Virus record (IMG/VR): IMGVR_UViG_3300013121_000012
Span: 21,427 to 85,426 of that record
Length of the DNA: 64,000 bases
From: a virus
Lineage: Duplodnaviria > Heunggongvirae > Uroviricota > Caudoviricetes
Strand: one strand, 5' to 3'
Each line of letters opens with the position of its first letter. The first letter of the stretch is position 1. Positions 33,168 through 63,898 of the stretch are shown piece after piece. A program made the position numbers and the translations under genes. The notes beneath the pieces were generated by a model, which worked only from the letters and a program-made list of their open reading frames with translations, was not told where the DNA came from and made no database searches.

Positions 33168-33241
33168 GCTCTAGTAGAGAATGGTATATCGGTTCCGCTT
33201 AAAACGGGATGTCATTGTCGGTTCGAATCCGACCTAGAGTA
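33168..33241 (+). tRNA. tRNA, class-I size, anticodon loop cuUAAaa (Leu-type anticodon UAA)
   Basis: Acceptor gctctag/ctagagt, T-arm gtcgg-TTCGAAT-ccgac, discriminator A. Confidence 0.55.
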
Positions 33242-33244
33242 AAT

Positions 33245-33321
33245 GCCGGTGTGATGCAATTTTGGCAGACATCTCTCATTCAAAACGAGAGTTTTTGGGG
33301 GTTCGAGTCCCTTCACCGGCA
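33245..33321 (+). tRNA. tRNA, class-I size, probable anticodon CAA (loop uuCAAaa closed by an A·C mismatch)
   Basis: Acceptor gccggtg/caccggc, T-loop TTCGAGT, discriminator A. Confidence 0.45.
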
Positions 33322-33337
33322 CAAAGTTTTTTAATAA

Positions 33338-33411
33338 GCCACTGTACACCAACGGTAGAGTGAGCGGTCTTAGAAGCCGTAAAGTGATGGGTTCGAATCC
33401 CTCCAGTGGTA
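33338..33411 (+). tRNA. tRNA, class-I size, anticodon loop cuUAGaa (Leu-type UAG); weak T-stem
   Basis: Acceptor gccactg/cagtggt, T-loop TTCGAAT. Confidence 0.45.
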
Positions 33412-33421
33412 CATAAAAATT

Positions 33422-33495
33422 GGTCTTGTGCGCGAAATGGTATAGCGGCAGTCCTGAGAAGGCTGTGTTTGTGGGTTCGAATCTCACCAAGACCA
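33422..33495 (+). tRNA. tRNA, class-I size, anticodon GAG (loop cuGAGaa; Leu-type)
   Basis: Acceptor ggtcttg/caagacc, D-stem cgcg, anticodon stem cagtc/ggctg, T-arm gtggg-TTCGAAT-ctcac, 5-nt variable loop. Confidence 0.6.
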
Positions 33496-33770
33496 CATGA
33501 ATATTGGTTGACAAGAGATTGTTAGAAACTCTTGGTAGCTCGAAATGATTGTTCTACGTAGTCTATTCGTAGTGATCATAGTAGAGTGCACTAAGACTGG
33601 ATGACGCAAAAATCTTTTGTCCGAAATGTTCATCATTTTCCTGGGTGATTAGAAAACAAAAAGTCTACGCCGAAAGAAAATGAAAATAATTTAATTGATT
33701 TAGAATTTAGAATTGACGCGGTTATGAATGGGTTTCTTGAACGTTTTTCCCCCGCAATAAACGTTCTTAA

Positions 33771-33858
33771 CCTCCTGTGGTGTAATGGCAGCACAACGGA
33801 TTTATATCCCGTCGCACCAGATTAGTGGTTTGTGAAGGTTCGATTCCTTCCAGGAGGA
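33771..33858 (+). tRNA. class-II (long variable arm) tRNA, anticodon unresolved
   Basis: Acceptor cctcctg/caggagg, T-arm gaagg-TTCGATT-ccttc, variable-arm hairpin acca/tggt. The anticodon region has an irregular 9-nt loop. Confidence 0.45.
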
Positions 33859-33939
33859 CATGAGTTTGAAAACGACAATAACAGTCGCTTTGAAGATGAA
33901 ATTAAATTGTAGTAGTCGACATTGTTCAAACTCACAAAT

Positions 33940-34013
33940 GGGTTGCTCGTCTAATGATTAGGACACCGTCCCCTTTACGGACGGAAATCGGGACTCGATC
34001 CCCCGGTGGCCCA
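33940..34013 (+). tRNA. degenerate tRNA-like element (possible pseudo-tRNA; loop ccUUUac)
   Basis: Acceptor gggttgc/gtggccc with three G·U pairs, T-loop CTCGATC, anticodon-like hairpin ccgtcc-cctttac-ggacgg. Confidence 0.25.
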
Positions 34014-34193
34014 CATTTTCTCACCAAAGAGAGTAAGAATCTCATGAGGACGGGTGATTCCCTTGACTGCTTGTAATTAAGCGTCCCATTATCTTCTAAT
34101 CGGAAGAATGCCCGAGCGTATGACGACTTGGCAAGTGAGAAAAAGAAGATAAAGTGAAAAACTAAGCCGCGGCTTGTATGCGCTTTATCATTC

Positions 34194-34264
34194 AGGAACT
34201 TAGTTCACTGGTAGAATTTTTGTACGACGCACAAAAGAAAAGAGTTCGATTCTCTTAGTTCCTA
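34194..34264 (+). tRNA. degenerate tRNA-like element (no U33; possible pseudo-tRNA)
   Basis: Acceptor aggaact/agttcct, T-arm aagag-TTCGATT-ctctt, anticodon hairpin tttgt-acgacgc-acaaa. Confidence 0.3.
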
Positions 34265-34298
34265 CATATTATTCGAACAAAGAACAAATATAATATGT

Positions 34299-34874
34299 AT
34301 GAGTTCTTTAAAGTTCGAACCTATAGATCAATATATTCTCAAATCAAAGGATTTGAGACAATCGCATCTTGACTTAAAATCTGAATGCATTGAAATAGGA
34401 GGCGCTGACTCAAAACATTATAGAGGATTATTGGCTCATGTTCTTAAAACAACAATTCCATCTGGAAAAAAGATTCATTTATGTCATGCATGCAATAATC
34501 CAAAATGTTCCAATGTCAAACACTTATACTGGGGAACTGTAAAAGAGAATGCGCGTGATAAATTTGAATGTGGAAGAATGAGCTCTAAAAAAATAAAAGA
34601 ATCGCTTTTGAGAAAATTTGGATCAGAAGAAAATCTTCGGAAGCATTTCTCTGAAAATGGAAAGAAAAACAAGGGAAGAATCTTAGATCCAGAAAAAACC
34701 AAACACAGAATAGATTTAATACGATATTGTAATGTTGATTTTTCGAAATATGGTTGGGTACAAGAAGTGAGTAAAGTTACTGGAGTACATACGCAACACA
34801 TTAATAAACTGGTAAAAAGACATTTACCAGAAATTTATGCAATTGCCTTCAAGAGGAAAACAAAGGTATCATAG
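34299..34874 (+). CDS. HNH homing endonuclease
   Basis: HLCHACNNPKCSNVKHLYWGT: an HNH motif embedded in the tRNA array. Confidence 0.55.
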   Translation: MSSLKFEPIDQYILKSKDLRQSHLDLKSECIEIGGADSKHYRGLLAHVLKTTIPSGKKIHLCHACNNPKCSNVKHLYWGTVKENARDKFECGRMSSKKIKESLLRKFGSEENLRKHFSENGKKNKGRILDPEKTKHRIDLIRYCNVDFSKYGWVQEVSKVTGVHTQHINKLVKRHLPEIYAIAFKRKTKVS

Positions 34875-34889
34875 AAATATAATACATAT

Positions 34890-34958
34890 CGCGTGAGCGC
34901 TAGGGAGCACGGTTCTCTCATAAGGAACCTTTGGTGGGTTCGAATCCCATGCACGCGA
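34890..34958 (+). tRNA. tRNA-Met/Ile2 (anticodon CAU), short D-arm
   Basis: Anticodon arm ggttct-cuCAUaa-ggaacc; T-arm gtggg-TTCGAAT-cccat. Confidence 0.5.
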
Positions 34959-34962
34959 CCAT

Positions 34963-35033
34963 GGAGCATTAGTGTAGTGGTTATCACGGCTGATTGTCGA
35001 TCAGCAAATAGGGGTTCGATTCCCCTATGCTCC
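34963..35033 (+). tRNA. tRNA-Asp (GUC)
   Basis: Acceptor ggagcat/atgctcc, anticodon arm gctga-uuGUCga-tcagc, T-arm agggg-TTCGATT-cccct. Confidence 0.6.
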
Positions 35034-35239
35034 GCACTACTTTCTCTAATCTACCTTAACTGGCAAACTGAGGAAGTATAATCGACGGTCTATTTCAAGC
35101 TTACGAGTTTGTTAGAAGATTGTACCCTACTTCTTGCAAGTAGGGATTAGGATGAAATACAAAATCGGTGATTAAGTTCCCGAATACAAAGGTTCATTCG
35201 CCCACAATGAAATGTTCGAACGAGTAGTTGTGGTTTTTA

Positions 35240-35317
35240 GGTCACGTATCGGCGGGGTCTTCTAAGCCTTAAGCACGTAAATGGATGAAAATGCGGGTTC
35301 GATTCCTGCCGTGATCG
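35240..35317 (+). tRNA. tRNA-like gene, anticodon arm not resolved
   Basis: Acceptor ggtcacg/cgtgatc, T-arm gcggg-TTCGATT-cctgc. Confidence 0.35.
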
Positions 35318-35340
35318 CAGCATCATAGGATGCATTTATC

Positions 35341-35742
35341 GGGGGCGCATTTGGCTTCGATTGTCCTGTTTGAAAACAAATTCTCAGTCGAGGAGTGTGC
35401 CTCGTAAAAAACAACAAAGCATATAAATGCAGAAAAGAAAGAAGGTAAACTACTCGTTGGAAACTTTGGTGCTACACCAGTTTCTCGTGGCGTAGTTGCC
35501 GCACTCGCAGCTTAATTTTAAGTTGCAAGAAACCCACAAGAGTTCGGTAGTGGTGTTTCTCCTTACAGAACTAAGAGATAAGAAAACGACGAAGGTTCTT
35601 ATTTATGAAAATTTCAGATTCGCCGAAGCCACCGACGCTTGTGTCTTATGTAGGTGAGCAGGAACAGTCAATAAGACTCTAAACTGTAAGATGAATCTGT
35701 TTTACAAGGGGTAAGACAGGGGTTCGATTCCCCTCGCCTCCA
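35341..35742 (+). ncRNA. ssrA: tmRNA (ssrA-like)
   Basis: 5' GGGGGCG pairs with 3' CGCCUCC-A and gives a G3·U70 pair (Ala identity). A T-arm agggg-TTCGATT-cccct lies next to the 3' end. The 5' region GGCTTCGATTGTCC resembles the tmRNA GGATTCGACGGG block. An internal reading frame ends ...GVVAALAA-TAA, a typical degradation tag. Confidence 0.65.
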
Positions 35743-35867
35743 CAAAGAATGTTTTTAACCATAGGCGGATCTCCGTTTATGAATCTCGCTATGACGGATA
35801 GCGATCACATCACTGAGCAGTTACAGTAATGTCGAGAAGTTAGAAGCCAACATCCGTCAGCAATATT

Positions 35868-38656: not shown

Positions 38657-39799
38657 ATGCAAGTTGACTTAAAGAAGATCGAACAATACGTTGCCTCTGG
38701 CAAAGTATCAAAGCGCAAACACCCAACACTCCCTTTGAATATCTACACATATTCGAAGTTAACTGAAATCAATAACGAGTGGGATGAAATCACAGCTATG
38801 TGCCGAGGATTAATTCTCGACTTAAACGGAAACGTTGTCGGAAATCCATGGCCAAAGTTTTTCAACATTGAACAAACTGGCGGATCAGCGCACATTAAGA
38901 AATTATGGTCGCATCCAGAAATTGGACACGATGTAATCAAACATAAGGGAACTGAATACAAGATTCCAGCGGTTGACTATGTTGCTTATGAAAAAATGGA
39001 CGGATCAATCCTCTATGGTTGCCGTTATTTTGACCAAATGGTCTTAGCATCAAAGGGTTCGTTCGAATCTGATCAAGTAAAAGTTGGAGAAAAAATCCTT
39101 AAGGAAAAGTACCCAACATTTATGGTGCCAGAAGGACATACGTTCATCTGGGAAATCATTTATCCAGCGAACCGGATAGTTGTTGACTACGGCGATATGT
39201 GCGATCTAGTTCTTTTAGGTATCCGTAATACGGATCTTAATATGGACTGGTTCGGATATAAAGAATCGTGGCTCAAAATCTTTCCACGACCAACTGTTTA
39301 CGAAAAGACAATTGAAGAACTTCTCGTTGAAAAAGACCGCAAGGACTTCATCAACAAAGAAGGATTCGTAATCCATTTTGAAAATGGCGAAAAGGTTAAG
39401 ATTAAGTATGAAGCTTATTTTGATCTTCACAAGATAATGACTAACGTCACATCAAAGGATATTCTCGAAGCTCTTGAAAAGGGCGACTCAGTCGTTGCTT
39501 TCTGCGAGCAAAAGGATATTCCAGATGAAATGCTTGATGAAATCAAAGCAGTCGAAAAGGACTTTATCAATCGCTACGCCAAAATCGAAGAAGATTGCAA
39601 GTACTATTTGTCTGTTGCTCTCGATAAGAGAGAACGTAAAGCTCAAGCAAAGAACGTCATGGAGTTTACTCCTGAGAATTTACGAGGAATCGTATTCGCT
39701 ATGCTCGACAATAAGGATTATTCAAAGATGATCTTTACTCTGTTGAAGATTGACGAAAAGATGAATCGCAAATTTATTGGAAAAGCAGGAGCGTCGTAA
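38657..39799 (+). CDS. RNA ligase, Rnl1 (T4 RnlA-like) family
   Basis: CRGLILDLNGNVVGNPWPKFFNIEQTG parallels T4 Rnl1 CRGIMFE...PMEKFFNLNENP. RBS aggagg. Confidence 0.75.
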   Translation: MQVDLKKIEQYVASGKVSKRKHPTLPLNIYTYSKLTEINNEWDEITAMCRGLILDLNGNVVGNPWPKFFNIEQTGGSAHIKKLWSHPEIGHDVIKHKGTEYKIPAVDYVAYEKMDGSILYGCRYFDQMVLASKGSFESDQVKVGEKILKEKYPTFMVPEGHTFIWEIIYPANRIVVDYGDMCDLVLLGIRNTDLNMDWFGYKESWLKIFPRPTVYEKTIEELLVEKDRKDFINKEGFVIHFENGEKVKIKYEAYFDLHKIMTNVTSKDILEALEKGDSVVAFCEQKDIPDEMLDEIKAVEKDFINRYAKIEEDCKYYLSVALDKRERKAQAKNVMEFTPENLRGIVFAMLDNKDYSKMIFTLLKIDEKMNRKFIGKAGAS

Positions 39800-39822: not shown

Positions 39823-40410
39823 ATGCAAGAAGTATATATCTTACGCGGAGTGCCAGCTTCAGGAAAATCAACCTGGGCAAGAGCATTCGTAAAACAAAAC
39901 CGAGATTTCGTAATCATATCTCGCGATGGAATCCGTGAAATGATCGGAGACTATTCACACTCACCACAAACAGAGAATCTCGTTACGAAGTTATATGATA
40001 AGATGGTTAAAGAACTCCTTTCTATGAAGAAGTCTTTGATCCTCGACAACTGTCATGCGCAACCAAAGTACATTTCAGAAACTCTCAAGTTGATCGAAGG
40101 AACTCGTCTCAACGTTAAAGTCACACTCAAAGAGTTTGAATATGATGTCGAGACATGCGTTGAGCGTGATGCAAAACGTGAACGTACTGTCGGTCGTGAA
40201 GTAATCGAAAAGATGGATCGTGCTATCCGCCAAAATCCATTCAAACACGTCGAAAAGATGGTGAATGAATGGAAGGCGAGTGTCGCCTCCAATCCTGATA
40301 CGAAGAGAGCGTGGAGCAATCCTACACTCAACTTCAAACCAGGATTGCCTTTAGCGGTAATTTTTGATATAGATGGTACATTAGCTCACATTTCTAGAAA
40401 GATCCAATAA
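39823..40410 (+). CDS. polynucleotide 5'-kinase domain of Pnk (T4 PseT-like), ends in the HAD DxDGT motif
   Basis: P-loop GVPASGKST. The C-terminus ...VIFDIDGTLAHI then reaches a stop, so the phosphatase domain is cut off after motif I. Confidence 0.75.
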   Translation: MQEVYILRGVPASGKSTWARAFVKQNRDFVIISRDGIREMIGDYSHSPQTENLVTKLYDKMVKELLSMKKSLILDNCHAQPKYISETLKLIEGTRLNVKVTLKEFEYDVETCVERDAKRERTVGREVIEKMDRAIRQNPFKHVEKMVNEWKASVASNPDTKRAWSNPTLNFKPGLPLAVIFDIDGTLAHISRKIQ

Positions 40411-40429: not shown

Positions 40430-41092
40430 GTGAAAGTAAAACAGAAATGCTCGATATGCGGCCATGATTATGAGTGCTTTCCTAGTGCAATAAAACTAGG
40501 AAAAAGCACATGTTCGAAAAAGTGCTCATATATACTTCGAGGTAATAAACGAGCGAATGATTTATCTGGAAAAAAATTCAGACATTTGACGGCCATCAAA
40601 AGAGTACAAAATAAAAATGGAAAAGTTTTTTGGTCAGTACTTTGTGATTGTGGAAATACCTCAGAGGTTGATGCGAATGCTTTAACAAGAATCGACGGTA
40701 AAGGCGCTGTATCTTGTGGTTGCATGAATTTTCGCAAGGGAAAAGAAAGTTCAAATTGGAAAAGTCCAAACGAAATATCTCACGCTTATTTTTTCCGAAC
40801 ACAATGTAATGCAAAAAGAAGAAAACTCGAATTTTCTATAACAATAGAAGAAACTTTCGAGATATTCAAAAATCAAAATCGTCTCTGTCGAATCAGTGGA
40901 ATGCCTATTTCTTTAGGCCAAAATATGAGAACGATGACAGCTTCTTTAGATCGAATCGATTCATCTAAAGGATATATCAAAGGCAATGTTCAATGGCTTC
41001 ATAAAGACATCAATCGTCTTAAGAGCAATTGGAATCAAAAAGTTTTTATAGAACTTTGCAAAAAGGTAGCAAATTATGAAAGAAAAATATGA
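40430..41092 (+). CDS. HNH homing endonuclease inserted inside the pnk gene
   Basis: ...ASLDRIDSSKGYIKGNVQWLHKDIN: an HNH_3-type motif, plus a Cys-rich N-terminus. Confidence 0.6.
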   Translation: MKVKQKCSICGHDYECFPSAIKLGKSTCSKKCSYILRGNKRANDLSGKKFRHLTAIKRVQNKNGKVFWSVLCDCGNTSEVDANALTRIDGKGAVSCGCMNFRKGKESSNWKSPNEISHAYFFRTQCNAKRRKLEFSITIEETFEIFKNQNRLCRISGMPISLGQNMRTMTASLDRIDSSKGYIKGNVQWLHKDINRLKSNWNQKVFIELCKKVANYERKI

Positions 41093-41456
41093 CAACTCGA
41101 TGCGCTCTCCATTTGATTGGAAACGAGTCGGAGAAGATGTTGTAGATCCGGTCGTAAGATGGATGCTAGAACGTTTTCAAAATGAAGCAAAAATAATAAT
41201 CGTATCAGGAAGAGATTCTGTTTGTCGAAAAGAAACAGAAGATTGGCTTCTTGAAAATGGAATTCTTTATGATGAGTTATTTATGCGCGGAGAAAATGAT
41301 ATGCGCAAAGATTCAATCATTAAAAGAGAAATCTATGAAAACTATATTAAAGACAAGTATAACGTTATGTTAGTTGTTGACGATAGACAACAGGTCGTTG
41401 ATACTTGGAGGGAAATGGGAATGAAAGTTGCCCAAGTGGAACCTGGAGATTTCTAA
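41076..41456 (+). CDS. polynucleotide 3'-phosphatase domain of Pnk (continuation of 39823..40410)
   Basis: RSPFDWKRVGEDVVDPVV...IIIVSGRD...VVDDRQQVVDTWREMGMKVAQV aligns with T4 Pnk GPYDLEKCDTDVINPMV...VVVSGRE...[21 protein letters not shown]. Confidence 0.75.
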   Translation: MKEKYDNSMRSPFDWKRVGEDVVDPVVRWMLERFQNEAKIIIVSGRDSVCRKETEDWLLENGILYDELFMRGENDMRKDSIIKREIYENYIKDKYNVMLVVDDRQQVVDTWREMGMKVAQVEPGDF

Positions 41457-43620: not shown

Positions 43621-44679
43621 ATGGAATGGAAAGTATACAAAAGCAAAGTTGAAGTCTTTCCTCATAAAGGGGCAGACAAACTAGAACTCGTAAAAGCGGG
43701 ACTATATCAGTTCGTCACGCAAAAAGGACTATATAAAACAGGCGACGATGCATTCGTTATACCTGAGAAAAGTGTTCTACCAGATGCCCTAAAACCGCAT
43801 TGGGAACAGTTCCTGAAAGGACCGGATAAAAACCGCGTAGGTTCTATTCGTCTCAGAAATGAAGCATCTCAAGGAATTCTGCTTTCAATGGACAAAGCAA
43901 AAGAAATATTTGCTGACATCGAAACAGCGGAATATGGAACGGACGTAAGTGAATTCCTCGGAATTACAAAATACGAACCACCAATTCCTCCACAATTCGC
44001 CGGTCAAATGAAACCACTTCAAGGAGAGAAACACTTCTTCGATTGTACTCATTTCAGTATCTATGAAAATGAATTCAGAGAAGAGGACGATGTTATCGTC
44101 ACAGAGAAACTTCACGGAACACAATGTAACTATCAATATAACATCCTTACTGGCGAAGAACAAATCACATCGAAAGGATTACTTCAAAAAGATATTTGCA
44201 TTGTTGAAAATCCAGACAACATTTACTGGAGGGCAATCCGTGAAAGCAAAGTAAAAGAATGGATCGACGAATGGATCTCATGTCTTCCTGCCGGAGATGA
44301 ATTCAAAAAAGTTCAAATAACTGGAGAAGTTATTCCGTGTCAAAAAGGATATTCTTATGGTCTAACGAAACCAAAGTTCTTCATTTTTAACATTGCAGTA
44401 TGGGAAGTTGATGAATCATTTTCAACGTGGTTCCCGGATGAAGATGAGATACTTCCATTCGACAAAGCTCCAATTCTTTTCGCTGGAAAATATGCTGATG
44501 TTTGTTACAGACTCCAAGAGATGTGCGAAGGAATGGAAACGGTTTCTGGAAAAGGATTACACATCCGCGAAGGAATCGTTGTTCGTCCAGTTCCAGATCG
44601 CAGAACACATTCTGGTGAATGGCTTCGTTTGAAAGTCATCAATCCAAAATACAAAGAGGATGGAGAAGAGTTGTCATGA
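43621..44679 (+). CDS. ATP-dependent RNA/DNA ligase-family nucleotidyltransferase (Rnl2-like motifs)
   Basis: TEKLHGTQ (motif I, KxHG as in Rnl2 KIHGTN), EGIVVRP (motif IV) and WLRLKVINPKYK (motif V). Confidence 0.45.
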   Translation: MEWKVYKSKVEVFPHKGADKLELVKAGLYQFVTQKGLYKTGDDAFVIPEKSVLPDALKPHWEQFLKGPDKNRVGSIRLRNEASQGILLSMDKAKEIFADIETAEYGTDVSEFLGITKYEPPIPPQFAGQMKPLQGEKHFFDCTHFSIYENEFREEDDVIVTEKLHGTQCNYQYNILTGEEQITSKGLLQKDICIVENPDNIYWRAIRESKVKEWIDEWISCLPAGDEFKKVQITGEVIPCQKGYSYGLTKPKFFIFNIAVWEVDESFSTWFPDEDEILPFDKAPILFAGKYADVCYRLQEMCEGMETVSGKGLHIREGIVVRPVPDRRTHSGEWLRLKVINPKYKEDGEELS

Positions 44680-45367: not shown

Positions 45368-45579
45368 TCAAAGCAATCAGAAGATGGTGGATAAAAACTG
45401 GAATCGACGCCTGTTACAAAGAATACGAAAATCTGAATCATTTTTGGAAGTTCGAATGTTCTAATTTTTTTAGAGGGCCACAATCGGCAAAAAGAAATCG
45501 TGTGCGAGCTCATCAATGGCAACATAGAATAGATGAAAGACTCGATAAACTCGAAGCAAAATTGAAGGAACTAAAATGA
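45364..45579 (+). CDS. hypothetical small protein
   Basis: Start trimmed. Confidence 0.3.
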   Translation: MIKAIRRWWIKTGIDACYKEYENLNHFWKFECSNFFRGPQSAKRNRVRAHQWQHRIDERLDKLEAKLKELK

Positions 45580-46379
45580 ATAACAGCAAAGACAGTCTCG
45601 GCGATCGCATGAAGGGATATGAAAATATCTGGAAGACAAAACTTCCACGTCGCCTTCCAATGATCATGAGAGTGGATGGAAAAGCATTTCACACATACAC
45701 TCGCGACTGTGAAAAACCATTCGATAAAAGACTTGCTGATCTTATGGATGCAACAGCGAAGCATCTTTGTGAGAATATCCAGGGTGCTCAGATCGCATAC
45801 GTTCAAAGTGATGAGATAACAATTCTCGTTCATGACTACAAGACTCTTCAGAGTGATGCGTGGTTCGATAAAGAACTTCAGAAGATGTGTTCAATCTCTG
45901 CGGCATTAGCAAGTACGTTCTTTACTGTTAATAGCCACAAATTGTGGAAATATGATGATGCAGATCTACCGTCTGGAATGAACAGAATCAAAACTGCTCT
46001 CTTTGATTCTCGTTGCTTCATTGTACCAGAACATGACGTTGTCAACAACTTTATTTGGAGACAGCAAGACGCAGTACGTAACAGCATTCAAATGCTTGCT
46101 CGTTCTCTTTACTCACACAACGAATGCAACAATAAAAATCAGGCGGCTCTTCAGGAGATGATTCACCAGAAAGGCCAAAACTGGAATGATGTTCCTACTG
46201 GCTTCAAACGTGGTCGCTGCGTATACAAGAAACCATTTTATGTTGTCAGCGATGAACGCATGCACGATGAAGATGTTGTACGCAACAAGTGGATTATCGA
46301 TTCAGAAATTCCTACGTTTACTGTTGACAGAGATTTTATAGGAAAATGGTTAGCAGTTAATGAGGAAAAAAATGATTGA
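45576..46379 (+). CDS. Thg1-like protein (tRNA-His guanylyltransferase family, 3'-5' nucleotidyltransferase)
   Basis: N-terminus DRMKGYE...PMIMRVDGKAFHTYT parallels the Thg1 RIDGKKFHEFS core, and SDEITILV parallels the Thg1 SDEYSF block. Confidence 0.65.
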   Translation: MNNSKDSLGDRMKGYENIWKTKLPRRLPMIMRVDGKAFHTYTRDCEKPFDKRLADLMDATAKHLCENIQGAQIAYVQSDEITILVHDYKTLQSDAWFDKELQKMCSISAALASTFFTVNSHKLWKYDDADLPSGMNRIKTALFDSRCFIVPEHDVVNNFIWRQQDAVRNSIQMLARSLYSHNECNNKNQAALQEMIHQKGQNWNDVPTGFKRGRCVYKKPFYVVSDERMHDEDVVRNKWIIDSEIPTFTVDRDFIGKWLAVNEEKND

Positions 46380-47071: not shown

Positions 47072-47216
47072 ATTACTTCATATTCTGGGTTTTTGCCCAG
47101 ACCGCTTCGCACATTTCAGTCTTACGACTCTTTTGTGTACAAACGAAATACTATTCACAATTTATTACTTGTGGCTTAAGTTCAGAACGTCCTTCTAGCC
47201 ACCAAAGGTGGTTAAA

Positions 47217-47879
47217 ATGAAACGTTACAAGTACCCAAAAACAATGCATTTTCCATGGTCGCCTGGTCTTCAGAACGACGACCGTATGCTTGAATCTGTC
47301 AATGTTTTTATAGGCAAAGAAGTCATCATTACTGAAAAGTTCGATGGCGAGAATACATCGATCTACGCAGATCATATTCATGCCAGGAGTTTAGACTCAC
47401 AGAATCATCCGAGCAGAAACTGGGTAAGAGCATTCGCTGCAAAATTTCAGCATCAGATACCAATTGATTGGAGAATCTGTGGAGAGAATATGTATGCGAT
47501 GCATTCTATTTTCTACAAATATCTGCCATCGTACTTTCTAGGATTCTCAATATGGGATGATAAGAATAACTGCTTACATTGGGATGAAACGATGAATTGG
47601 TTTCAAATGTTCGGAATAACACCCGTGAGACCGATCTATCGCGGAATCTTTGATGATAAACTAATTCAATCATTGATCATGGCAAATGGATCAGCGATTA
47701 TGGATGAAAACATGGAAGGATATGTTTGCAGAACGGTTGAAGGATTTCATTACGATGACTTCCAGAAATGCGTTGCGAAATATGTACGAAAAAACCATGT
47801 TCAGACAGATGAACATTGGATGAATAAGGAGATAGTTAAGAATGGCCTCGACACAAGATCAGAAATCAGCGGCAAGTGA
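47217..47879 (+). CDS. small RNA-ligase-family nucleotidyltransferase (PF09414-like)
   Basis: TEKFDGEN (motif I KxDG), EGYVCRT (motif IV) and VAKYVRKNH (motif V); RBS aaaggtgg. Confidence 0.5.
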   Translation: MKRYKYPKTMHFPWSPGLQNDDRMLESVNVFIGKEVIITEKFDGENTSIYADHIHARSLDSQNHPSRNWVRAFAAKFQHQIPIDWRICGENMYAMHSIFYKYLPSYFLGFSIWDDKNNCLHWDETMNWFQMFGITPVRPIYRGIFDDKLIQSLIMANGSAIMDENMEGYVCRTVEGFHYDDFQKCVAKYVRKNHVQTDEHWMNKEIVKNGLDTRSEISGK

Positions 47880-50199: not shown

Positions 50200-50514
50200 G
50201 AAAATTTTTATGCGAAATTTCGGTTTGTTGTAATATAATAGTAATATCGGAAGCGAGAAAAGAGCTACTTCGAATCAACTACAAACAGCTTTAAAAAGAA
50301 AACAATCTCTTTTCAATTTTTCTCCGAGATAATGCACGTCAGAAGACTGACAGCAAGGTAAGTGAGTTACTTCGGCCCTTAGTGGGCAATTTTTATTTGA
50401 AAAAAAATCCGGTTGGTGCGAATCCAGCAAAGATGGCGAAAGCCAGGGAGCAATCCCGCCTCACTCCAATTTCCTTCAGTCGAGTGCACCGTTCTCATAA
50501 TAAAGAAAAATTAA
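50200..50514 (+). ncRNA. candidate structured ncRNA upstream of the Ro60 gene (possible second Y-like RNA)
   Basis: A noncoding stretch with a -10-like element at ~50228 that ends at the intrinsic terminator at 50515. It contains GNRA-type hairpins (ggcgaaagcc) and a T-arm-like hairpin ttgg-TGCGAAT-ccag. Confidence 0.3.
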
Positions 50515-50540
50515 GGCTCCCAATGAGGAGCCTTTTTTAT
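50515..50540 (+). terminator. intrinsic terminator
   Basis: ggctcc-caatga-ggagcc + TTTTTTA. Confidence 0.65.
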
Positions 50541-50555
50541 TTTAGGAGTGACAAT

Positions 50556-52037
50556 ATGTCAAAGTTTAACAAGAAAACAAAAACAACAATCAAGCCAAAG
50601 GTCGTCGCCAATAAAGGCGGTGGTGTAGGCTTTGCGCAGAGTAAGGAAATGGAACTCGCTTCTATTTTGCTTACATCGTTCCTATCAGGGAACACACATG
50701 AATCAGAGTCAGCGCAAGAACAAAGAATCTCGAATCTCCTTGATTCGTTTGGCGATTCAAACTTCCCAGCGAAAGCTGCGGTGTTTGCTCGTAACGAATT
50801 CGGTATGCGTTCAGTTTCACACTTGATCGCGTCTGAAATCGGTGAAAGAGTTAAGGGAGCAGAATGGACAAAACGATTCTTTGAAAAGGTTGTTCGCCGT
50901 CCAGACGACATTACTGAAATTCTTTCACGCACACTCGCAGAACAAGGAACAGTTCCTAATGCGATGAAGAAAGGACTTGCAGCTTCTTTCTCTAAGTTCG
51001 ATGAGTACCAACTCGCGAAGTATAGAGGAGAAGGAAAAGCAGTTTCTTTGATTGACGCTGTCAATCTTCTTCACCCAACTCCAACAGCGAAAAACAAAAT
51101 CGCTCTCAAGAAATTGATTGCCGATAAGCTTCGTTCAAAGGAAACATGGGAATCAAAGATTTCTGAAACAGGAAAATCTGAGAATGTCGAAGAAGCTAAG
51201 ACGGAAGCTTGGGCAGATTTAATCACTTCCGAAAGAATTGGTTATCTCGCTCTTGTACGAAACCTCCGTAACATTCTCACAAGTGTTACTGATGTAGGCG
51301 TTATTGAAAAGGCTTGCGATATCCTTAAGGATAAGAACAAGTGCAAGAACAGTCTTATCTTCCCTTTCACTTTCTGGTCAGCGTACTTTGAAGTTGAAAG
51401 TATGTCACTCTCAAGTGTTACAAAGAAGCTTGTCATGAGCGCTTTGAACAAAGCACTTGAAATGTCATGTGACAACATCCCAGTATTCGAAGGACGAACA
51501 CTCGTTGCTATCGATTATTCTGGATCAATGGGTGGAACTGACATCTGCAACAAATTGAGCAATCGAGGCGTTGCATCATTGTTCGCTACTGTTCTCGCTA
51601 AGAAGAACCCAACATCTGACATCGTTATCTTCGGAGACGATTGCAAGTATGTTAAGAACTTCAACGCAGACGACAGCATCTTCACAAACCTAAAAAACTT
51701 GATGAAGAATAACCAATATGCGGGAGACAATACTGTTCATGTTGGTCACAGTACAAATTTCTATTCAATCTTCAATGCCGCAAAGCATAAGTATGATCGA
51801 ATCGTAATTTTCTCTGATATGCAAGCGAACTCTGGATATGGTTGGTCTGGACTAGAAGCATACAACAAGAAGTTTGACGTAAAGCCACTCATTATTGCTG
51901 TTGATCTTCAAGGCAACGGAACAACTCAGTTCAAGAAAGACTTCGTTCAAGTAGTCGGATGGTCTGAAAAGATTTTCGATCTTATGAAGAACGATGCTCA
52001 GACACTTGTCAACAGAATCAAAGCCATCGAGCTTTAA
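50556..52037 (+). CDS. rsr: Ro60 (TROVE domain + C-terminal vWA/MIDAS) ortholog, Rsr-like
   Basis: RBS ttaggagtgacaATG. The C-terminal vWA has LVAIDYSGSMGG (MIDAS DxSxS). An N-terminal ~350-aa helical region is typical of TROVE proteins. The length (493 aa) matches bacterial Rsr. Start trimmed from the track ORF. Confidence 0.65.
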   Translation: MSKFNKKTKTTIKPKVVANKGGGVGFAQSKEMELASILLTSFLSGNTHESESAQEQRISNLLDSFGDSNFPAKAAVFARNEFGMRSVSHLIASEIGERVKGAEWTKRFFEKVVRRPDDITEILSRTLAEQGTVPNAMKKGLAASFSKFDEYQLAKYRGEGKAVSLIDAVNLLHPTPTAKNKIALKKLIADKLRSKETWESKISETGKSENVEEAKTEAWADLITSERIGYLALVRNLRNILTSVTDVGVIEKACDILKDKNKCKNSLIFPFTFWSAYFEVESMSLSSVTKKLVMSALNKALEMSCDNIPVFEGRTLVAIDYSGSMGGTDICNKLSNRGVASLFATVLAKKNPTSDIVIFGDDCKYVKNFNADDSIFTNLKNLMKNNQYAGDNTVHVGHSTNFYSIFNAAKHKYDRIVIFSDMQANSGYGWSGLEAYNKKFDVKPLIIAVDLQGNGTTQFKKDFVQVVGWSEKIFDLMKNDAQTLVNRIKAIEL

Positions 52038-58743: not shown

Positions 58744-58814
58744 AGGCGATTAGTTCAATGGTAGAACGGCAGACCGATAATCTGCTAACGTGGGTTCGAT
58801 TCCCTCATTGCCTA
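58744..58814 (+). tRNA. tRNA, probable Ile (GAU)
   Basis: D-arm gttc/gaac, anticodon arm gcaga-ccGAUaa-tctgc, T-loop TTCGATT with an imperfect stem. Confidence 0.4.
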
Positions 58815-58870
58815 CATAAGTGGATCATGATTATTTTGCGCAAAGATAGTCAGATCCACAAATATACATT

Positions 58871-59407
58871 ATGAAAGAAATCATAATGGAAGATTCTTAT
58901 GGGAAAAAAAGAGCCCATGTAGAAGTTAACTGCAAAAATTGTGATAAGCAATTTTTTAGAGTTAAAAGAAAAGTGATTGAAAAAAACTTCTGTTGTAGAT
59001 TGTGTTCGGAAGAACACAAAAAGAATTCAGATATTTTTGAAACGCAGTGCGCTTTCTGTAAAAGTTCAATCAAAAGAAAGAACAGCAGAAAAAGAAATAG
59101 TAAGTCTGGTCTGTATTTTTGCTCTAGAGACTGTAAAGATAACGCACAACGTTATCATAACTCTCTAAGAATAAAAGAATTCGAATCTATAATGCCAAAC
59201 CATTATGGAACAGGAGAATATAGATACAGAAAGAAAGCGTTCGATAACGCAAAGGTTATCAAGTGTAATTTTTGTGATTACTCGAATGAGAAAATTCTTC
59301 AAGTTCATCACATCGATGAGGACAGAGAAAATAATGAATTGTCAAATTTAATGATCGTTTGTCCAACTCATCATTGCGAAATACACTATGGAGAATTAAA
59401 AATTTAG
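58871..59407 (+). CDS. HNH homing endonuclease
   Basis: Cys-rich N-terminus; C-terminal ILQVHHIDEDRENNELSNLMIVCPTHHCEIH. Confidence 0.65.
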   Translation: MKEIIMEDSYGKKRAHVEVNCKNCDKQFFRVKRKVIEKNFCCRLCSEEHKKNSDIFETQCAFCKSSIKRKNSRKRNSKSGLYFCSRDCKDNAQRYHNSLRIKEFESIMPNHYGTGEYRYRKKAFDNAKVIKCNFCDYSNEKILQVHHIDEDRENNELSNLMIVCPTHHCEIHYGELKI

Positions 59408-59575
59408 GGCCTTGGGACTGCTGGAGGTGGTCGTCTCGCTTGCACCGAGAATAACAGGTCGGTTTGAACCCGACAAGGTCCACATGAACAAACAACAACC
59501 GCAAACCCTCCGGTAGTAGATGCATCGAATAGATGGAATGCTTTCGATGATAAACTCTGTTGTTTGTTCACTTAT

Positions 59576-59647
59576 TGCCTCGTAGCCAAGTGGTAAGGCA
59601 GGTGACTGTTAATCATCGTATCGTAGGTTCGATCCCTACCGAGGCAG
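59576..59647 (+). tRNA. tRNA-Asn (GUU)
   Basis: Anticodon arm ggtga-cuGUUaa-tcatc, T-arm gtagg-TTCGATC-cctac. Confidence 0.55.
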
Positions 59648-59666
59648 CAGTATAATAAGGAGAAAA

Positions 59667-59858
59667 ATGATAGTAGTATACATCATTCTAGGTCTAAGTT
59701 TATTGGGTTTGATTTTAGAACGAATCGAATATCATAGACTTCCTCCTAAAAGACAAAAAGCATACGACAGAGCTTTGGCTTATCGAATGAAAAAAGAAGA
59801 AGAAAAAAGAGAAAGCGATAAAAAAATCGACGAACTCAATAGTGGTTTTCTTCTCTAA
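59667..59858 (+). CDS. small membrane protein
   Basis: RBS aaggagaaaaATG; N-terminal TM segment. Confidence 0.3.
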   Translation: MIVVYIILGLSLLGLILERIEYHRLPPKRQKAYDRALAYRMKKEEEKRESDKKIDELNSGFLL

Positions 59859-59863
59859 TAAAT

Positions 59864-59955
59864 TCCGCGGTACACTAATTGGTAAGTGACCTCACTGTTA
59901 ATGAGACGTAAATCCCTTCGGGGAATATATAGAGGTTCGAGCCCTCTCTGCGGAG
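59864..59955 (+). tRNA. class-II-sized tRNA with Asn-type anticodon loop cuGUUaa and a 24-nt extra arm capped by UUCG
   Basis: Acceptor tccgcgg/ctgcgga, D-arm cact/agtg, T-arm agagg-TTCGAGC-cctct, extra arm atccc-ttcg-gggaat. Confidence 0.4.
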
Positions 59956-59958
59956 CAA

Positions 59959-60516
59959 ATGATTCACTTTACAAGTGATACTCATTATTTCCACAGTAAA
60001 ATAATCGAGTATTGTAATCGACCGTTCAAATCCGTCGAGGAAATGAACAAAACCATGGTTGACAACTACAACTCAGTTGTCAAACCAGAGGATACTGTTT
60101 ATCATTTAGGAGATTTTGCATTCGCGAATGAATCGCGGATAAAGCAAATTTTCTATCAGTTAAACGGTAAGAAAATACTGATCTTTGGAAATCACGATGT
60201 TGATCCAAAGTATAGTGGTAAGAAAGCATATTCGCAGCTTTTTGACGAAGTGCATGATTACCTCGAGTTGAAAATCAATGGAGAAAGGATTGTAATGTTT
60301 CACTTTCCTATTGATTCATGGAACAAAAGACATCGCTCTGCGATTCACTTGCATGGACACACGCATGGAACGCATCAAGAGAAAAACAAACTTGTTCCAA
60401 ACAGATTTGATGTTGGCGTTGATTGCTGGGATTTCAAACCAGTTTCTCTCAACAAAATTCTGTCAATGAAACAGGAAGTCACTATTCATGATAGGTATCA
60501 AACACCTGTCGTGTAA
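59959..60516 (+). CDS. calcineurin-like metallophosphoesterase
   Basis: SDTHYFH, GDFAF, GNHD and GHTHG motifs. Confidence 0.55.
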   Translation: MIHFTSDTHYFHSKIIEYCNRPFKSVEEMNKTMVDNYNSVVKPEDTVYHLGDFAFANESRIKQIFYQLNGKKILIFGNHDVDPKYSGKKAYSQLFDEVHDYLELKINGERIVMFHFPIDSWNKRHRSAIHLHGHTHGTHQEKNKLVPNRFDVGVDCWDFKPVSLNKILSMKQEVTIHDRYQTPVV

Positions 60517-60526
60517 GCGACACATT

Positions 60527-60599
60527 GGCTTGTTAGCAACTGTGGTCAATGCGCTCCCCTGAAGAGGGAGACAACTCGGTTCGATTCCGAGACAAGCCA
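60527..60599 (+). tRNA. tRNA-Phe (GAA)
   Basis: Acceptor ggcttgt/acaagcc, anticodon arm ctccc-cuGAAga-gggag, T-arm ctcgg-TTCGATT-ccgag. Confidence 0.65.
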
Positions 60600-60653
60600 C
60601 AATCATACTGTTAATGCGAATGCTTTTTAAGCGTACGCTATAATATAATAGAT

Positions 60654-61118
60654 ATGAACAAAAGAAAATGGACCGATGAAGAATTTTTGGAAGCTGTAAA
60701 AACTTCCATCAGCAAATCGGACGTTCTGAAAAAACTAGGACTCACGTTGAGACCAGGAAATTTTAGAACATTTGAAAAATATGTTAAACTTTTGAATGCA
60801 GACATTTCTCATTTCAAAGGAAAAGCACACGGAACAACTAAAATCGTGAAATACACGATTGAAGAATTGTTGGTAGAAAATTCTACGAACTATAATTCTT
60901 CGACCATAAAAAGAAGGTTGTTAAGTGAAGGCATTATCAAACATGTCTGCGATATTTGTGATTTAAAAGAATGGAATGGAAAACCACTAATAATGGTTCT
61001 CGATCACATCAATGGAATTCACACAGATTACAGAAGAGAAAATTTGAGAATGCTTTGTCCAAATTGCAATAGTCAACAAGAGACTTTTTGCAGAAAGACA
61101 AAAATTAACAGGCATTAG
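60654..61118 (+). CDS. HNH homing endonuclease
   Basis: ICDICDLKEWNGKPLIMVLDHINGIHTDYRRENLRMLCPNCN: a paralog of the 62520 ORF. Confidence 0.65.
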   Translation: MNKRKWTDEEFLEAVKTSISKSDVLKKLGLTLRPGNFRTFEKYVKLLNADISHFKGKAHGTTKIVKYTIEELLVENSTNYNSSTIKRRLLSEGIIKHVCDICDLKEWNGKPLIMVLDHINGIHTDYRRENLRMLCPNCNSQQETFCRKTKINRH

Positions 61119-61179
61119 TGAACTGGTATCATACGGAGCTTGGTCCTCTGAGAAGTGGGTTCGATTCCCACGTGCCTGA
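61109..61179 (+). tRNA. tRNA, probable anticodon UGG (Pro-type), atypical loop
   Basis: Acceptor caggcat/gtgcctg, T-arm gtggg-TTCGATT-cccac. It overlaps the 3' end of the HNH ORF. Confidence 0.4.
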
Positions 61180-61186
61180 CAAATAA

Positions 61187-61258
61187 CCGCGTGTAGCGCA
61201 GCGGAAGCGCACTCCGTTTGGGGCGGAGGGGTCGAAGGTTCGAATCCTTCTACGCGGA
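61187..61258 (+). tRNA. tRNA-Pro (UGG)
   Basis: D-arm gcgc/gcgc, anticodon arm ctccg-uuUGGgg-cggag, T-arm gaagg-TTCGAAT-ccttc. Confidence 0.6.
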
Positions 61259-61279
61259 CATTGAGGAGAAAAATATATT

Positions 61280-61444
61280 ATGTGCATTTGTGTGTGCAAA
61301 CATGTTTCTCACAATACAATATCTAAGCTTATCGAAGAAAAGAAAAGCAAAGATGAAATTATAAAATGTACAGGCGCAACAACAATGTGCGGTACATGTA
61401 AAAGAGCTTTTGACTCTTTTTACGAAAACAGGACTTTAGTCTAA
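61280..61444 (+). CDS. small BFD-like [2Fe-2S]-binding domain protein (54 aa)
   Basis: MCICVCKHVSHNTI...CTGATTMCGTCK (C-x-C ... C-x2-C); RBS gaggag. Its 3' end overlaps the start of tRNA-Trp. Confidence 0.4.
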   Translation: MCICVCKHVSHNTISKLIEEKKSKDEIIKCTGATTMCGTCKRAFDSFYENRTLV

Positions 61445-61499
61445 TGGTAGAATTCTTGGCTCCAAACCAAGAGGCGTGGGTTCGATTCCTACAAGTCCT
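61430..61499 (+). tRNA. tRNA-Trp (CCA)
   Basis: Anticodon arm cttgg-cuCCAaa-ccaag, T-arm gtggg-TTCGATT-cctac. Confidence 0.6.
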
Positions 61500-61681
61500 G
61501 CATTTGGTTAGCTCATTGAGGTTTGCAAAATAAAAGAATCGTCCTCAATCTTGCTCGAGTCAAGTCCTGACGAAAAATGTATACAAAAGTAAGTCAGTCC
61601 ACGAGAGTAGCAAACTAACCGAAGAAAATTCGAGAACGGTTGCCAACGGATAATCTCCAACTGGTCAGAGTTCTCGAAAAT

Positions 61682-61755
61682 GCGGGTATGGTGTTTCAAT
61701 GGTAGCATCGCGGTCTTCCAAACCGAAGGTGTCGGTTCGATCCCGACTACCCGCT
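61682..61755 (+). tRNA. tRNA-Gly (UCC)
   Basis: Acceptor gcgggta/tacccgc, anticodon loop cuUCCaa, T-arm gtcgg-TTCGATC-ccgac. Confidence 0.6.
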
Positions 61756-62005
61756 CATGAGATAAGTGCTCCCTCGGGGAGAATACTGCTCAAACAGTTT
61801 TTGTGGTTTCTTAAGAAAAAACCATTTAACTCTCTATAGATTAAAGTAGTGATGAAGCGGTACCAGTTGTAGTCATGAATAAATCACTCCCCTTAAGGAG
61901 AGATGCGGTGCAAGTCCGACATGAGGGACCAACGGGACACAGCGTAAGATGCGCAACGGCAGTTGGTGCCGGAGGTTTTGGTGAAAATCCAAATGACCCG
62001 ACCAA

Positions 62006-62095
62006 GCGGGAGAGGCTACTATTGGTTCTGTGGCGTTCGTCTGTAAAACGAAACCCTCCGGGTAAAGATTGTGTGTTCGATTCACACCTTCCGCA
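62006..62095 (+). tRNA. tRNA-Tyr (GUA), class II
   Basis: Acceptor gcgggag/cttccgc, anticodon arm ttcgt-cuGUAaa-acgaa, a long variable arm, T-arm gtgtg-TTCGATT-cacac. Confidence 0.6.
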
Positions 62096-62392
62096 CAGTG
62101 ATATTTAAGATTCTCTAATCGCGAAGAAATGCGGAGAACGCCGAGAATGTACGAAATATCAGACCGAATTTAACCTTTTGACTGGTCGCCTTTCGCAGGT
62201 TTCATCGTTAAAGAAAAGGCATCGAAGAGAATGGAGTAATTAACCATTGCTCTTCAATGGAGTGGTCGTCTGCGGCCTAACAGTTCGTCTTGAAAACGAA
62301 TACGGTACCAATGTGTACGGGGATCGACACCTCACCACTCCGCAGCTCATGTGCCAAGTGTACAAGGAGCATAGAATTCGTTAGCAATGACG

Positions 62393-62463
62393 AATTCCGA
62401 ATGTCGCGTTCGTCTAATGGTAGGACATTGGGTTTTCAGTCCAAGAATCTCGGTTCAAACCCG
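62393..62463 (+). tRNA. tRNA-Glu (UUC)
   Basis: D-arm gtct/ggac, anticodon arm ttggg-uuUUCag-tccaa, T-loop TTCAAAC. Confidence 0.5.
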
Positions 62464-62519
62464 TGACGCGATGCCAGCAATAATAAATGCAATTCGGTTC
62501 GATTCGGAATATAATATGA

Positions 62520-63062
62520 ATGGAACAGTTTGTTAAATGTCTAAAAGATGATTGTGAAAACACTCTGACTTTAGAGAAAGTTAAGCGCGGAACAAAATTT
62601 TGTTCTCGATCTTGTGGAATTTCACATGGAAATACCATTAGACAAAAAGCTCCCACGATTGTTCACTGTGATAGTTGTGGAAATAAAATTGAAGGGCCGA
62701 ATTTTTGGCTCAACGGAAAGCTTAAATTCAAAAACAAATTCTGTAATGATACTTGCAGAAGAGATTTTGATAATAAGAAAAAGATTTCTTTGGTCGAATC
62801 TGGAAAAGCAACCGATAACGACAGAAGAGTTTTGAAAGAATACTTGGAAAACAAAGAAGGACACAAATGCAAAATTTGTGGAATTACTGATTGGTTAGGA
62901 AAACCTTTGATAATGATCTTAGATCATATTGATGGTCATTCTGAAAACAATGAACTGTCTAATTTAAGACTAGTTTGTTCGAATTGTGATTCGCAACTCG
63001 ATACATATAAAGCTAGAAATAAAGGAAACGGAAGAAAGAATAGAAAAGCTCTGCAAGCATAA
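62520..63062 (+). CDS. HNH homing endonuclease
   Basis: ICGITDWLGKPLIMILDHIDGHSENNELSNLRLVCSNCD; Cys-rich N-terminus. Confidence 0.65.
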   Translation: MEQFVKCLKDDCENTLTLEKVKRGTKFCSRSCGISHGNTIRQKAPTIVHCDSCGNKIEGPNFWLNGKLKFKNKFCNDTCRRDFDNKKKISLVESGKATDNDRRVLKEYLENKEGHKCKICGITDWLGKPLIMILDHIDGHSENNELSNLRLVCSNCDSQLDTYKARNKGNGRKNRKALQA

Positions 63063-63119
63063 ATGGCGATGCACCGGTCTTGTAAATCGGGGAACGGGAT
63101 TCGATTTCTCGGCGGAGCA
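63048..63119 (+). tRNA. tRNA-Thr (UGU)
   Basis: Acceptor gctctgc/gcggagc, D-arm gcat/atgc, anticodon arm ccggt-cuUGUaa-atcgg, T-arm cggga-TTCGATT-tctcg. It overlaps the last codons of the HNH ORF. Confidence 0.55.
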
Positions 63120-63124
63120 CAATG

Positions 63125-63238
63125 AAGGGTGAGTTGGTCGTGGAACAGCATGCAGCCCCAATGAGGATCGTTACCTCAATCGAGTCGGAAGACAAGATGA
63201 TTTGGTCTGGAAGGTAGGTTCGATTCCTACCGCTCTTC
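63125..63238 (+). tRNA. unresolved tRNA-like element (canonical T-arm and acceptor 3' strand; 5' partner only found 114 nt upstream)
   Basis: gtagg-TTCGATT-cctac + cgctctt. The candidate 5' strand aagggtg is at 63125. Confidence 0.2.
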
Positions 63239-63249
63239 ACAGGAATAAT

Positions 63250-63483
63250 ATGAAAGAATTGGTTAAAACAAATAAGGTTCACGTACTTGATACTGAAAGA
63301 TCTTTCTGGGAAGACTTTATTCCAGTAGATTTACCTTATACGTTTATAGGCCGGAAAACGTTCGATAAAAAATCTCTTAAGGAAACAAAAGAGATATTTG
63401 AAAAACTGGCGGAACATTGCAAAGAAAACAATGTCGCGGTAATTATATGTGACTCGCTTAATGGCGGCACAAGAGGAATATGA
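63250..63483 (+). CDS. hypothetical protein
   Basis: Start trimmed to avoid the tRNA-like element. Confidence 0.3.
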   Translation: MKELVKTNKVHVLDTERSFWEDFIPVDLPYTFIGRKTFDKKSLKETKEIFEKLAEHCKENNVAVIICDSLNGGTRGI

Positions 63484-63891: not shown

Positions 63892-63898
63892 CAATAAT

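Follow-up and report, generated by a model that had tools for sequence, protein, structure and literature searches.

What would a Thg1-like protein (TLP) do in a tailed phage that carries large arrays of tRNA genes? The question is raised by an open reading frame (ORF) at positions 45576-46379 of a 64,000-nucleotide stretch (hereafter the window) of the IMG/VR virus record IMGVR_UViG_3300013121_000012 (Caudoviricetes), which an initial annotation had linked to the Thg1/TLP family on the basis of an N-terminal motif. The analysis established the family and subtype of the protein, the conservation of its active site, its predicted fold, and the linkage of its gene to RNA-repair genes within its lineage. 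The reading considered reasonably probable is that the ORF encodes a catalytically intact TLP that rebuilds damaged tRNA 5' ends as part of a phage RNA-repair island during infection. By analogy with characterized systems, we infer its substrate, the order of the pathway, the cooperation with neighboring gene products, and a purpose that may be either counter-defense or RNA quality control.

Sequence and predicted structure agreed in identifying the product of the ORF as a bacterial-type TLP of the Thg1 superfamily. The bounds of the ORF were exactly those given above, on the + strand, with an ATG start and a length of 267 aa. The hidden Markov model (HMM) PF04446 (Thg1) matched the protein over model positions 2-130 of 130 (E=7.3e-30; 104 bits, gathering cutoff 29.2), and the profile of PHROG 4717 (“tRNA-His guanylyltransferase”) did so at 245 of its 250 positions (E=1.3e-86). 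Among solved structures, the Thg1-like protein of Bacillus thuringiensis (BtTLP; 4kgk/4kgm) was by far the top sequence match (E=4.4e-61, query residues 6-262, 45% identity), while in the same PDB sequence search the yeast, Candida, and human Thg1 proteins reached only E=1e-11 to 1e-7 over the N-terminal catalytic core and the archaeal TLP 5axk reached E=9e-7. Enzymes of the superfamily are homotetramers (dimers of dimers), and here the monomer was modeled. An AlphaFold2 model of this monomer built from 55 relatives (mean predicted local distance difference test, pLDDT, 90; predicted template modeling score, pTM, 0.87) displayed the palm-like polymerase fold of the RNA recognition motif (RRM) type and superposed on BtTLP (4kgm/4kgk) with a target-normalised template modeling (TM) score of 0.92-0.95 and a root mean square deviation (rmsd) of 1.5-2.9 Å. 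Foldseek ranked BtTLP first, the archaeal TLP next, and the eukaryotic Thg1 proteins after them; all 32 of the 32 matches with E<1e-3 were Thg1 or TLP structures, and the weak tail consisted of GGDEF and Cas10 palm domains. The HMM search and the structure prediction that the initial annotation had proposed as checks both bore out its family assignment, and the possibility that the motif likeness was a coincidence in an ORF outside the Thg1 family was ruled out by the full-length HMM, PDB-sequence, and structural matches together with the conserved catalytic residues.

The N-terminal block had been placed near the catalytic carboxylates, and it did map to the catalytic center since D34, within the motif, is one of the two metal-binding aspartates. 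In the HMMER alignment, BtTLP residues R28, D30, H35, T38, K43, L49, S74-D75-E76, R147, and M158 corresponded to R32, D34, H39, T42, K47, L53, S78-D79-E80, R162, and M173 of the query, all of them identical, and D34, D79, and E80 also aligned with human Thg1 D29, D76, and E77. In BtTLP, the metal ligands are D30 and D75 (the D75A change abolishes activity), with E76 as third carboxylate; R28 and R147 are located at the incoming nucleotide, K43 functions in adenylylation, and the purine is sandwiched by T38, L49, and M158 (PMC3701042). Most mapped active-site residues were invariant or near-invariant in the alignment of the 55 relatives, with R32, D34, G35, F38, S78, D79, E80, W161, and R162 invariant. 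As judged from these alignments, every BtTLP catalytic or nucleotide-binding residue with a side-chain role is kept and the active site is intact.

The subtype of the protein was read from the segment that follows W161-R162. The human, Candida, and yeast Thg1 proteins carry HINNL(YN), whereas the query reads VRNSIQM and BtTLP SKNSISM, and Met173 stands in for the Thg1-specific Asn (ScN161/hN158), a difference treated for BtTLP M158 versus Asn158/N161 (PMC3701042). Because HINNLYN is replaced by a TLP-type sequence, the alignments identify the protein as a TLP of the templated 5'-end repair type and not as a eukaryote-type Thg1 or a dedicated enzyme for adding the guanosine at position -1 (G-1) of tRNA-His. 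The similarity to BtTLP therefore extends to full-length identity, functional residues, predicted fold, and the motif replacing HINNLYN, and the query differs from it in being phage-encoded and in two short insertions (~127-140 and ~222-233) modeled with lower confidence (pLDDT ~72-74). Eukaryotic Thg1 (human 3OTB, C. albicans 3WBZ, and yeast 5XOX) shares the superfamily, the fold, and the three carboxylates, whereas the query lacks HINNLYN and matches only the N-terminal core (E=1e-7 to 1e-11). Recognition of the tRNA-His anticodon and untemplated addition of G-1 across from A73 are properties of Thg1; such a tRNA-His specificity is not expected of the phage TLP.

Bacterial and archaeal TLPs rebuild 5'-truncated tRNAs, with the acceptor stem's 3' strand serving as template, and accept many tRNAs (PMC3701042; PMC4820378). 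BtTLP favors 5'-truncated tRNA and uses either ATP or GTP for activation, with an observed rate constant (kobs) of 0.91 per min on tRNA without G+1 and ~0.0007 per min for full-length tRNA-His in the presence of ATP (PMC3701042). By homology to BtTLP, the phage TLP would bind a tRNA with a truncated 5' end, and two metals, coordinated by D34 and D79, would serve in activating the 5'-monophosphate with ATP or GTP. The missing nucleotides would be added singly in the 3'-5' direction, with Watson-Crick templating by the acceptor stem's 3' strand, until the stem is restored. The kinase of the polynucleotide kinase-phosphatase (PNKP) encoded nearby could turn 5'-OH ends into the 5'-phosphate used by the TLP, and RNA ligases would seal breaks, with an Rnl5-type ligase serving for nicks in duplex RNA. 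Ligases of the latter type (DraRnl and NgrRnl) seal nicks in duplex RNA. The TLP would be one tool of a co-oriented RNA-repair island that keeps host and/or phage tRNAs usable under nuclease damage during infection.

The genomic context is consistent with this proposal in the window and in its closest relatives. A same-strand (+) block of ~13 kb holds the TLP, three RNA ligases, PNKP, an RNase-H-like protein, and Ro60 with a tRNA-like RNA, and is flanked by tRNA arrays and a transfer-messenger RNA (tmRNA; Table 1). Ten distinct contexts were compared, comprising the window and nine others with a TLP at least 58% identical to the window TLP, and in 8 of the 10 the TLP lay among RNA end-healing or sealing genes. 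The closest relatives (contigs L107-L109, 80% TLP identity) kept the same order of DHH, Rnl1, PNKP, Rnl5-type ligase, TLP, ligase remnant, RNase-H-like, GIY-YIG, and Ro60 genes, compared with Rnl1, PNKP, Rnl5-type ligase, TLP, small ligase, RNase-H-like, and Ro60 in the island of the window. In L025/L026 (67%), an RtcB gene ended 4 nt upstream of the TLP; L110 and L111 (60%) had an Rnl5-type ligase one gene upstream and PTH2 and Macro downstream; L112 (64%) had PNKP-HAD, cREC, and RlaP nearby; L113 (59%) had RlaP at 5 kb; and L115 (59%) combined Rnl1, PNKP, TLP, RlaP, an Rnl5-type ligase, and a CCA-adding enzyme. No repair genes were found within 10 kb of the TLP in L021-L024 (77%) or within 8 kb in L114 (58%). 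Among cultured phages, the TLP of Xanthomonas phage XacN1 lay ~4 kb from an RNA ligase and that of Bacillus phage Goe8 ~3 kb from RtcB.

Several observations weigh against the proposed role in tRNA 5'-end repair. In a broader sample of 97 IMG/VR loci with a TLP at most 57% identical to that of the window, searched iteratively with HMMs from six ligase/RtcB/PNKP seeds and given as raw counts, an RNA ligase, RtcB, or PNKP was located within 10 kb of the TLP in only ~10 (~10%) and tRNAs were present in 15 (15%). Because of these low frequencies, the repair-gene linkage is lineage-specific to the subclade of the window and not a general property of phage TLPs. The PNKP of the window is split and may be non-functional. 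The classic defense nucleases cut anticodon loops, a lesion beyond the reach of TLP repair (PMC7824862), and no defense nuclease removing tRNA 5' nucleotides was described in the literature searched. A more specific version of the repair reading is doubtful at present: in this phage lineage, a conserved core of two enzymes, the TLP and the Rnl5-type duplex-RNA ligase, aided by PNKP, RlaP, and CCA-adding enzymes, would counter an undescribed host defense directed at the acceptor stems or 5' ends of tRNAs instead of their anticodon loops.

The tRNA genes of the window bear on the roles that the initial annotation had offered. Its description of a phage with large tRNA arrays held, with 21 tRNAs predicted by ARAGORN, one further tRNA detected by Rfam only (22 altogether), and a tmRNA. 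Acceptor stems were paired at 7/7 positions (Watson-Crick or G-U) in 22/22 of these tRNAs and none overlapped one another, so that of its two suggestions the maturation of phage tRNAs found no support, while the TLP-type protein and the conserved repair island give better support to the other, the repair of nuclease-damaged tRNAs. The same stems bear on mitochondrial-style 5' editing, in which mismatched encoded 5' nucleotides of tightly arrayed phage tRNAs would be replaced. This activity is known of TLPs in protist mitochondria (PMC3701042) and some tRNA genes of the window are spaced just 3-6 nt apart, but with no acceptor-stem mismatch in any of the 22 the editing of window tRNAs was rejected and this explanation of the enzyme is considered highly improbable. 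The initial annotation had likewise seen no tRNA-His, and none was found in the 64-kb window, where the downstream array reaches 63972/64000 and the source contig is ~207 kb long; a 100%-identical TLP protein (P0001) is encoded on a 206,805-bp JGI contig. The Rfam-only tRNA at 63048-63119 (44.5 bits, missed by ARAGORN) was rejected as a candidate tRNA-His after its anticodon loop, CTTGTAA, was read by hand as that of tRNA-Thr(UGU); it shares 15 nt with the 3' end of an HNH-like ORF (62520-63062).

A tRNA-His G-1 enzyme, which would add or restore a C73-templated G-1 on phage or host tRNA-His for charging by histidyl-tRNA synthetase (HisRS), is an unlikely identity for the protein, even though G-1 addition is the name-giving activity of the family and the annotation in most phage records. 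Bacteria encode G-1 in the genome and RNase P leaves it in place, with no addition needed, and three of four tRNA-His genes near viral TLPs (L070, L090, and L095) likewise encode G-1 with C73, the fourth (L066) being unreadable. A G-1-less tRNA-His could lie in the rest of the ~207-kb genome, and bacterial TLPs are capable of G-1 addition to tRNA-His in vitro, where GTP-dependent activation of the full-length molecule is measurable, but BtTLP strongly favors truncated tRNAs over tRNA-His (PMC3701042). The encoded G-1/C73 elsewhere, the TLP-type motifs of the protein (without HINNLYN and with Met for the Thg1 Asn), and this substrate preference therefore make a dedicated G-1 role less likely, and the neighborhood is one of RNA repair rather than tRNA maturation. 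The TLP might instead rebuild or extend 5' ends paired to a template strand in RNAs other than tRNAs, such as the Ro60-associated tRNA-like RNA, structured small RNAs, or phage transcripts. The block that contains the TLP also has Ro60 and the tRNA-like element, 4-6 kb farther downstream, and the most frequent neighbor in the subclade is the Rnl5-type ligase, whose duplex-nick geometry resembles a TLP substrate; against this, Ro60 occurred at 0/106 TLP loci examined and the characterized bacterial and archaeal TLP substrates in the cited studies are all tRNAs (PMC3701042; PMC4820378), rendering non-tRNA substrates quite improbable.

Table 1. Coordinates of the TLP gene, its active-site segments, and the surrounding features in the window.
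Feature	Coordinates	Strand	Evidence
Upstream tRNA array, 7 tRNAs, and tmRNA	33168..35745	+	ARAGORN/Rfam
T4 Rnl1 (gp63)-family RNA ligase	38657..39799	+	phrog_562 E=2.7e-53; 78% identical to L107 ortholog with PF09511; KxDG in alignment
PNKP 5' part: P-loop polynucleotide kinase and HAD motif I (DIDGT)	39823..40410	+	AAA_33 E=1.7e-18; 88% identical to L107 PNKP residues 2-189
HNH homing-endonuclease ORF interrupting PNKP	40430..41092	+	phrog_3322 E=8e-24, phrog_374 E=5e-19; absent in L107 PNKP
PNKP 3' part: rest of HAD phosphatase domain	41076..41456	+	PF25109 HAD_PNKP E=3.2e-40; 79% identical to L107 PNKP residues 194-310
Rnl5-type (DraRnl/NgrRnl) ATP-dependent RNA ligase, 0.9 kb upstream of TLP	43621..44679	+	TIGR02306 RNA_lig_DRB0094, 239 bits vs cutoff 151
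TLP gene, 267 aa	45576..46379	+	PF04446, PHROG 4717, BtTLP 4kgk, AlphaFold2/Foldseek
Motif PMIMRVDGKAFHTYTRD, residues 28-44, with R32, catalytic D34, H39, T42	45657..45707	+	Residue map to BtTLP R28, D30, H35, T38
S78-D79-E80: second metal-binding Asp and third carboxylate	45807..45815	+	BtTLP S74-D75-E76; human S75-D76-E77; alignments
W161-R162...M173 segment WRQQDAVRNSIQM, TLP-type counterpart of eukaryotic WRQxDCHINNLYN	46056..46094	+	Alignments to 3otb, 3wbz, 5xox, 4kgk
Small PF09414 RNA ligase, 223 aa, 0.8 kb downstream of TLP	47208..47879	+	PF09414 E=7.8e-31; phrog_24030 E=1e-72
RNase H-like protein PF04308	48367..48834	+	E=3.8e-24; ortholog kept in L108
Ro60 ortholog (TROVE and vWA)	50382..52037	+	PF05731 E=4e-18, PF25045 E=5e-7; ortholog kept in L108
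Candidate Y-RNA-like transcript: tRNA-like module 52181-52256 closed by 11-bp helix	52176..52292	+	ARAGORN “tRNA-???”; Rfam tRNA 27.5 bits, below gathering score
Downstream tRNA array, 14 tRNAs including Rfam-only tRNA-Thr, up to window edge	58744..63972	+	ARAGORN/Rfam

Within the island, a ribosome-binding site (AGGA) precedes the ATG of the TLP gene at a spacing of 6 nt, and this ATG overlaps the stop codon of the preceding ORF as ATGA. Because of this AGGA and overlap, translational coupling of the TLP to the preceding ORF within the long same-strand block is suggested. A Pfam scan of the ORF at 38657-39799 gave no match, its identity as an Rnl1 coming from PHROGs and the ortholog only. The Rnl5-type ligase also matched PF09414, the PHA02142 OB domain, and the Naegleria RNA ligase 5cot (E=6e-10), while no PDB relative of the small ligase was found by sequence. 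Three different ATP-dependent RNA ligases (Rnl1-type, Rnl5-type, and the 223-aa PF09414 protein) are thereby encoded in 9 kb, and the small ligase seems fragmented in the related contig L108 into ORFs of 84 and 98 aa. A homing-endonuclease-like ORF of GIY-YIG type (49291-49992; Pfam match weak and below the gathering score) is situated in the island and not in the tRNA arrays.

The PNKP gene is interrupted exactly after DIDGT by ~660 nt containing the HNH ORF, and its counterpart in L107 is an unsplit protein of 310 aa. Each of the three ORFs occupies a different frame, which rules out an intein as the cause, and an Rfam search of 40300-41200 gave no match at E<=1 and hence no support for a group I intron. 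The interrupted gene may be spliced, act through two polypeptides, or be dead. A T4-type module of an Rnl1-family ligase with kinase and phosphatase domains is present, though its PNKP consists of two ORFs. A promoter-like site matching at 11/12 positions lies just upstream of the Rnl1 gene (38609-38637) and a strong terminator-like hairpin follows Ro60 (52061-52086). As promoter-like matches were overall no commoner than in shuffled sequence, the transcription-unit boundaries of the block are only suggestive.

Two known systems share parts of this arrangement. As in the healing-and-sealing system of T4 Pnkp and Rnl1, the window encodes adjacent Rnl1 and Pnkp homologs, and as in the bacterial rsr-Y RNA-rtcBA operon it has Ro60 with a tRNA-like RNA, the logic shared with both being that damaged translation RNAs are restored. 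Both systems mend breaks (anticodon loops as well as ends bearing a 2',3'-cyclic phosphate) without a 3'-5' polymerase, whereas the window lacks RtcB and has a PNKP gene interrupted by an HNH gene. The phage genes of PHROG 4717, including Bc431v3 gp143, XacN1 ORF126, and that of Goe8, belong to the same family and occur in large tRNA-rich phages, often within a few kb of an RNA ligase or RtcB; the window differs from them in a TLP identity of at most 46% and in its denser island with three ligases, PNKP, and Ro60.

The Ro60 ortholog contains both the TROVE and the vWA domain, and on sequence features the element at 52176-52292 that follows it is a candidate resembling Y RNA. The element is closed by a perfect 11-bp helix (52176-52186 with 52282-52292), is preceded by an extended -10 promoter-like site matching at 11/12 positions (52104-52132), and has a 6-nt anticodon loop; its fold z-score was only -1.7 and the Rfam YrlA model gave no match to it. 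A YrlA-like match of 40.6 bits, below the gathering score, was found ~600 nt after the Ro60 gene of another phage contig (L116, 4173-4241). A Ro/TROVE protein with a tRNA-like partner was also noted in a 2021 jumbo-phage study (PMC7824862).

Further features were observed among the tRNA genes. Two are unusually long, the tRNA-Ile(UAU) at 33771-33859 (89 nt) and the second tRNA-Asn(GUU) at 59864-59956 (93 nt), with extra arms or inserts atypical for their isoacceptors, and the tRNA-Glu (62403-62476) alone encodes its CCA end. The second tRNA-Asp(GUC) (53445-53515) overlaps the 5' end of the ORF at 53465-54211 (phrog_1843), where the match begins at residue 25 and the true start probably lies downstream of the tRNA. 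The tmRNA (35341-35745; Rfam 106 bits; tag peptide AEKKEGKLLVGNFGATPVSRGVVAALAA) is located just after the first tRNA array. Homing-endonuclease-like HNH ORFs lie between tRNA genes at 34299-34874, 58871-59407, 60654-61118, and 62520-63062, with weak Pfam matches below the gathering score.

The phage identity of the window is supported by PHROG matches to a tail sheath, an SbcCD-like nuclease, and a thymidylate synthase. Its GC content is 38.7%, and no DNA-level relative was found by megablast of window positions 40-52 kb against 50,697 phage records. The ORF at 14225-15313 matched a PhuZ-like tubulin PHROG (E=8e-11) over the N-terminal 150 residues only, a possible sign of a large phage that has features of a cytoskeleton or compartment. 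In L115 (4617-14765), L110, and L111, the TLP occurs beside RlaP, a CCA-adding enzyme, PTH2, Macro, NAMPT, and a homolog of the anti-Pycsar protein Apyc1, such that RNA-repair genes are co-located there with genes that may counter nucleotide-signal defenses.

Homologs of the TLP are encoded in 164 phage-collection records, mostly labeled tRNA-His guanylyltransferase, two conserved peptide patterns alone match 362 IMG/VR contigs, and >7,900 proteins match the TLP at E<=1e-10. The gene of Bacillus phage Bc431v3 was called “highly unusual” in 2013 (PMC3601020), and by 2021 a jumbo-phage comparison had described Thg1 as a sporadic RNA-repair component restoring 5' nucleotides (PMC7824862). Identification alone accordingly adds little, as phage TLPs are annotated in >160 phages and were placed in the RNA-repair repertoire in 2021. 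At up to 46% identity to any INPHARED phage protein, the window TLP is a fairly divergent member of a known phage gene family, situated in an unusually complete repair island.

To our knowledge, polymerization of nucleotides in the 3'-5' direction is carried out by no enzymes other than TLPs, and we know of no settled biological role for those of bacteria. The literature searched yielded no study, biochemical or genetic, of a TLP from a phage. If the TLP and the Rnl5-type ligase were indeed a counter-defense core, phage TLPs would be markers of a new class of tRNA-targeting immunity. Phage TLPs in healing-and-sealing islands offer a natural setting, infection under tRNA-targeting defense, for genetic tests of the role of TLPs.

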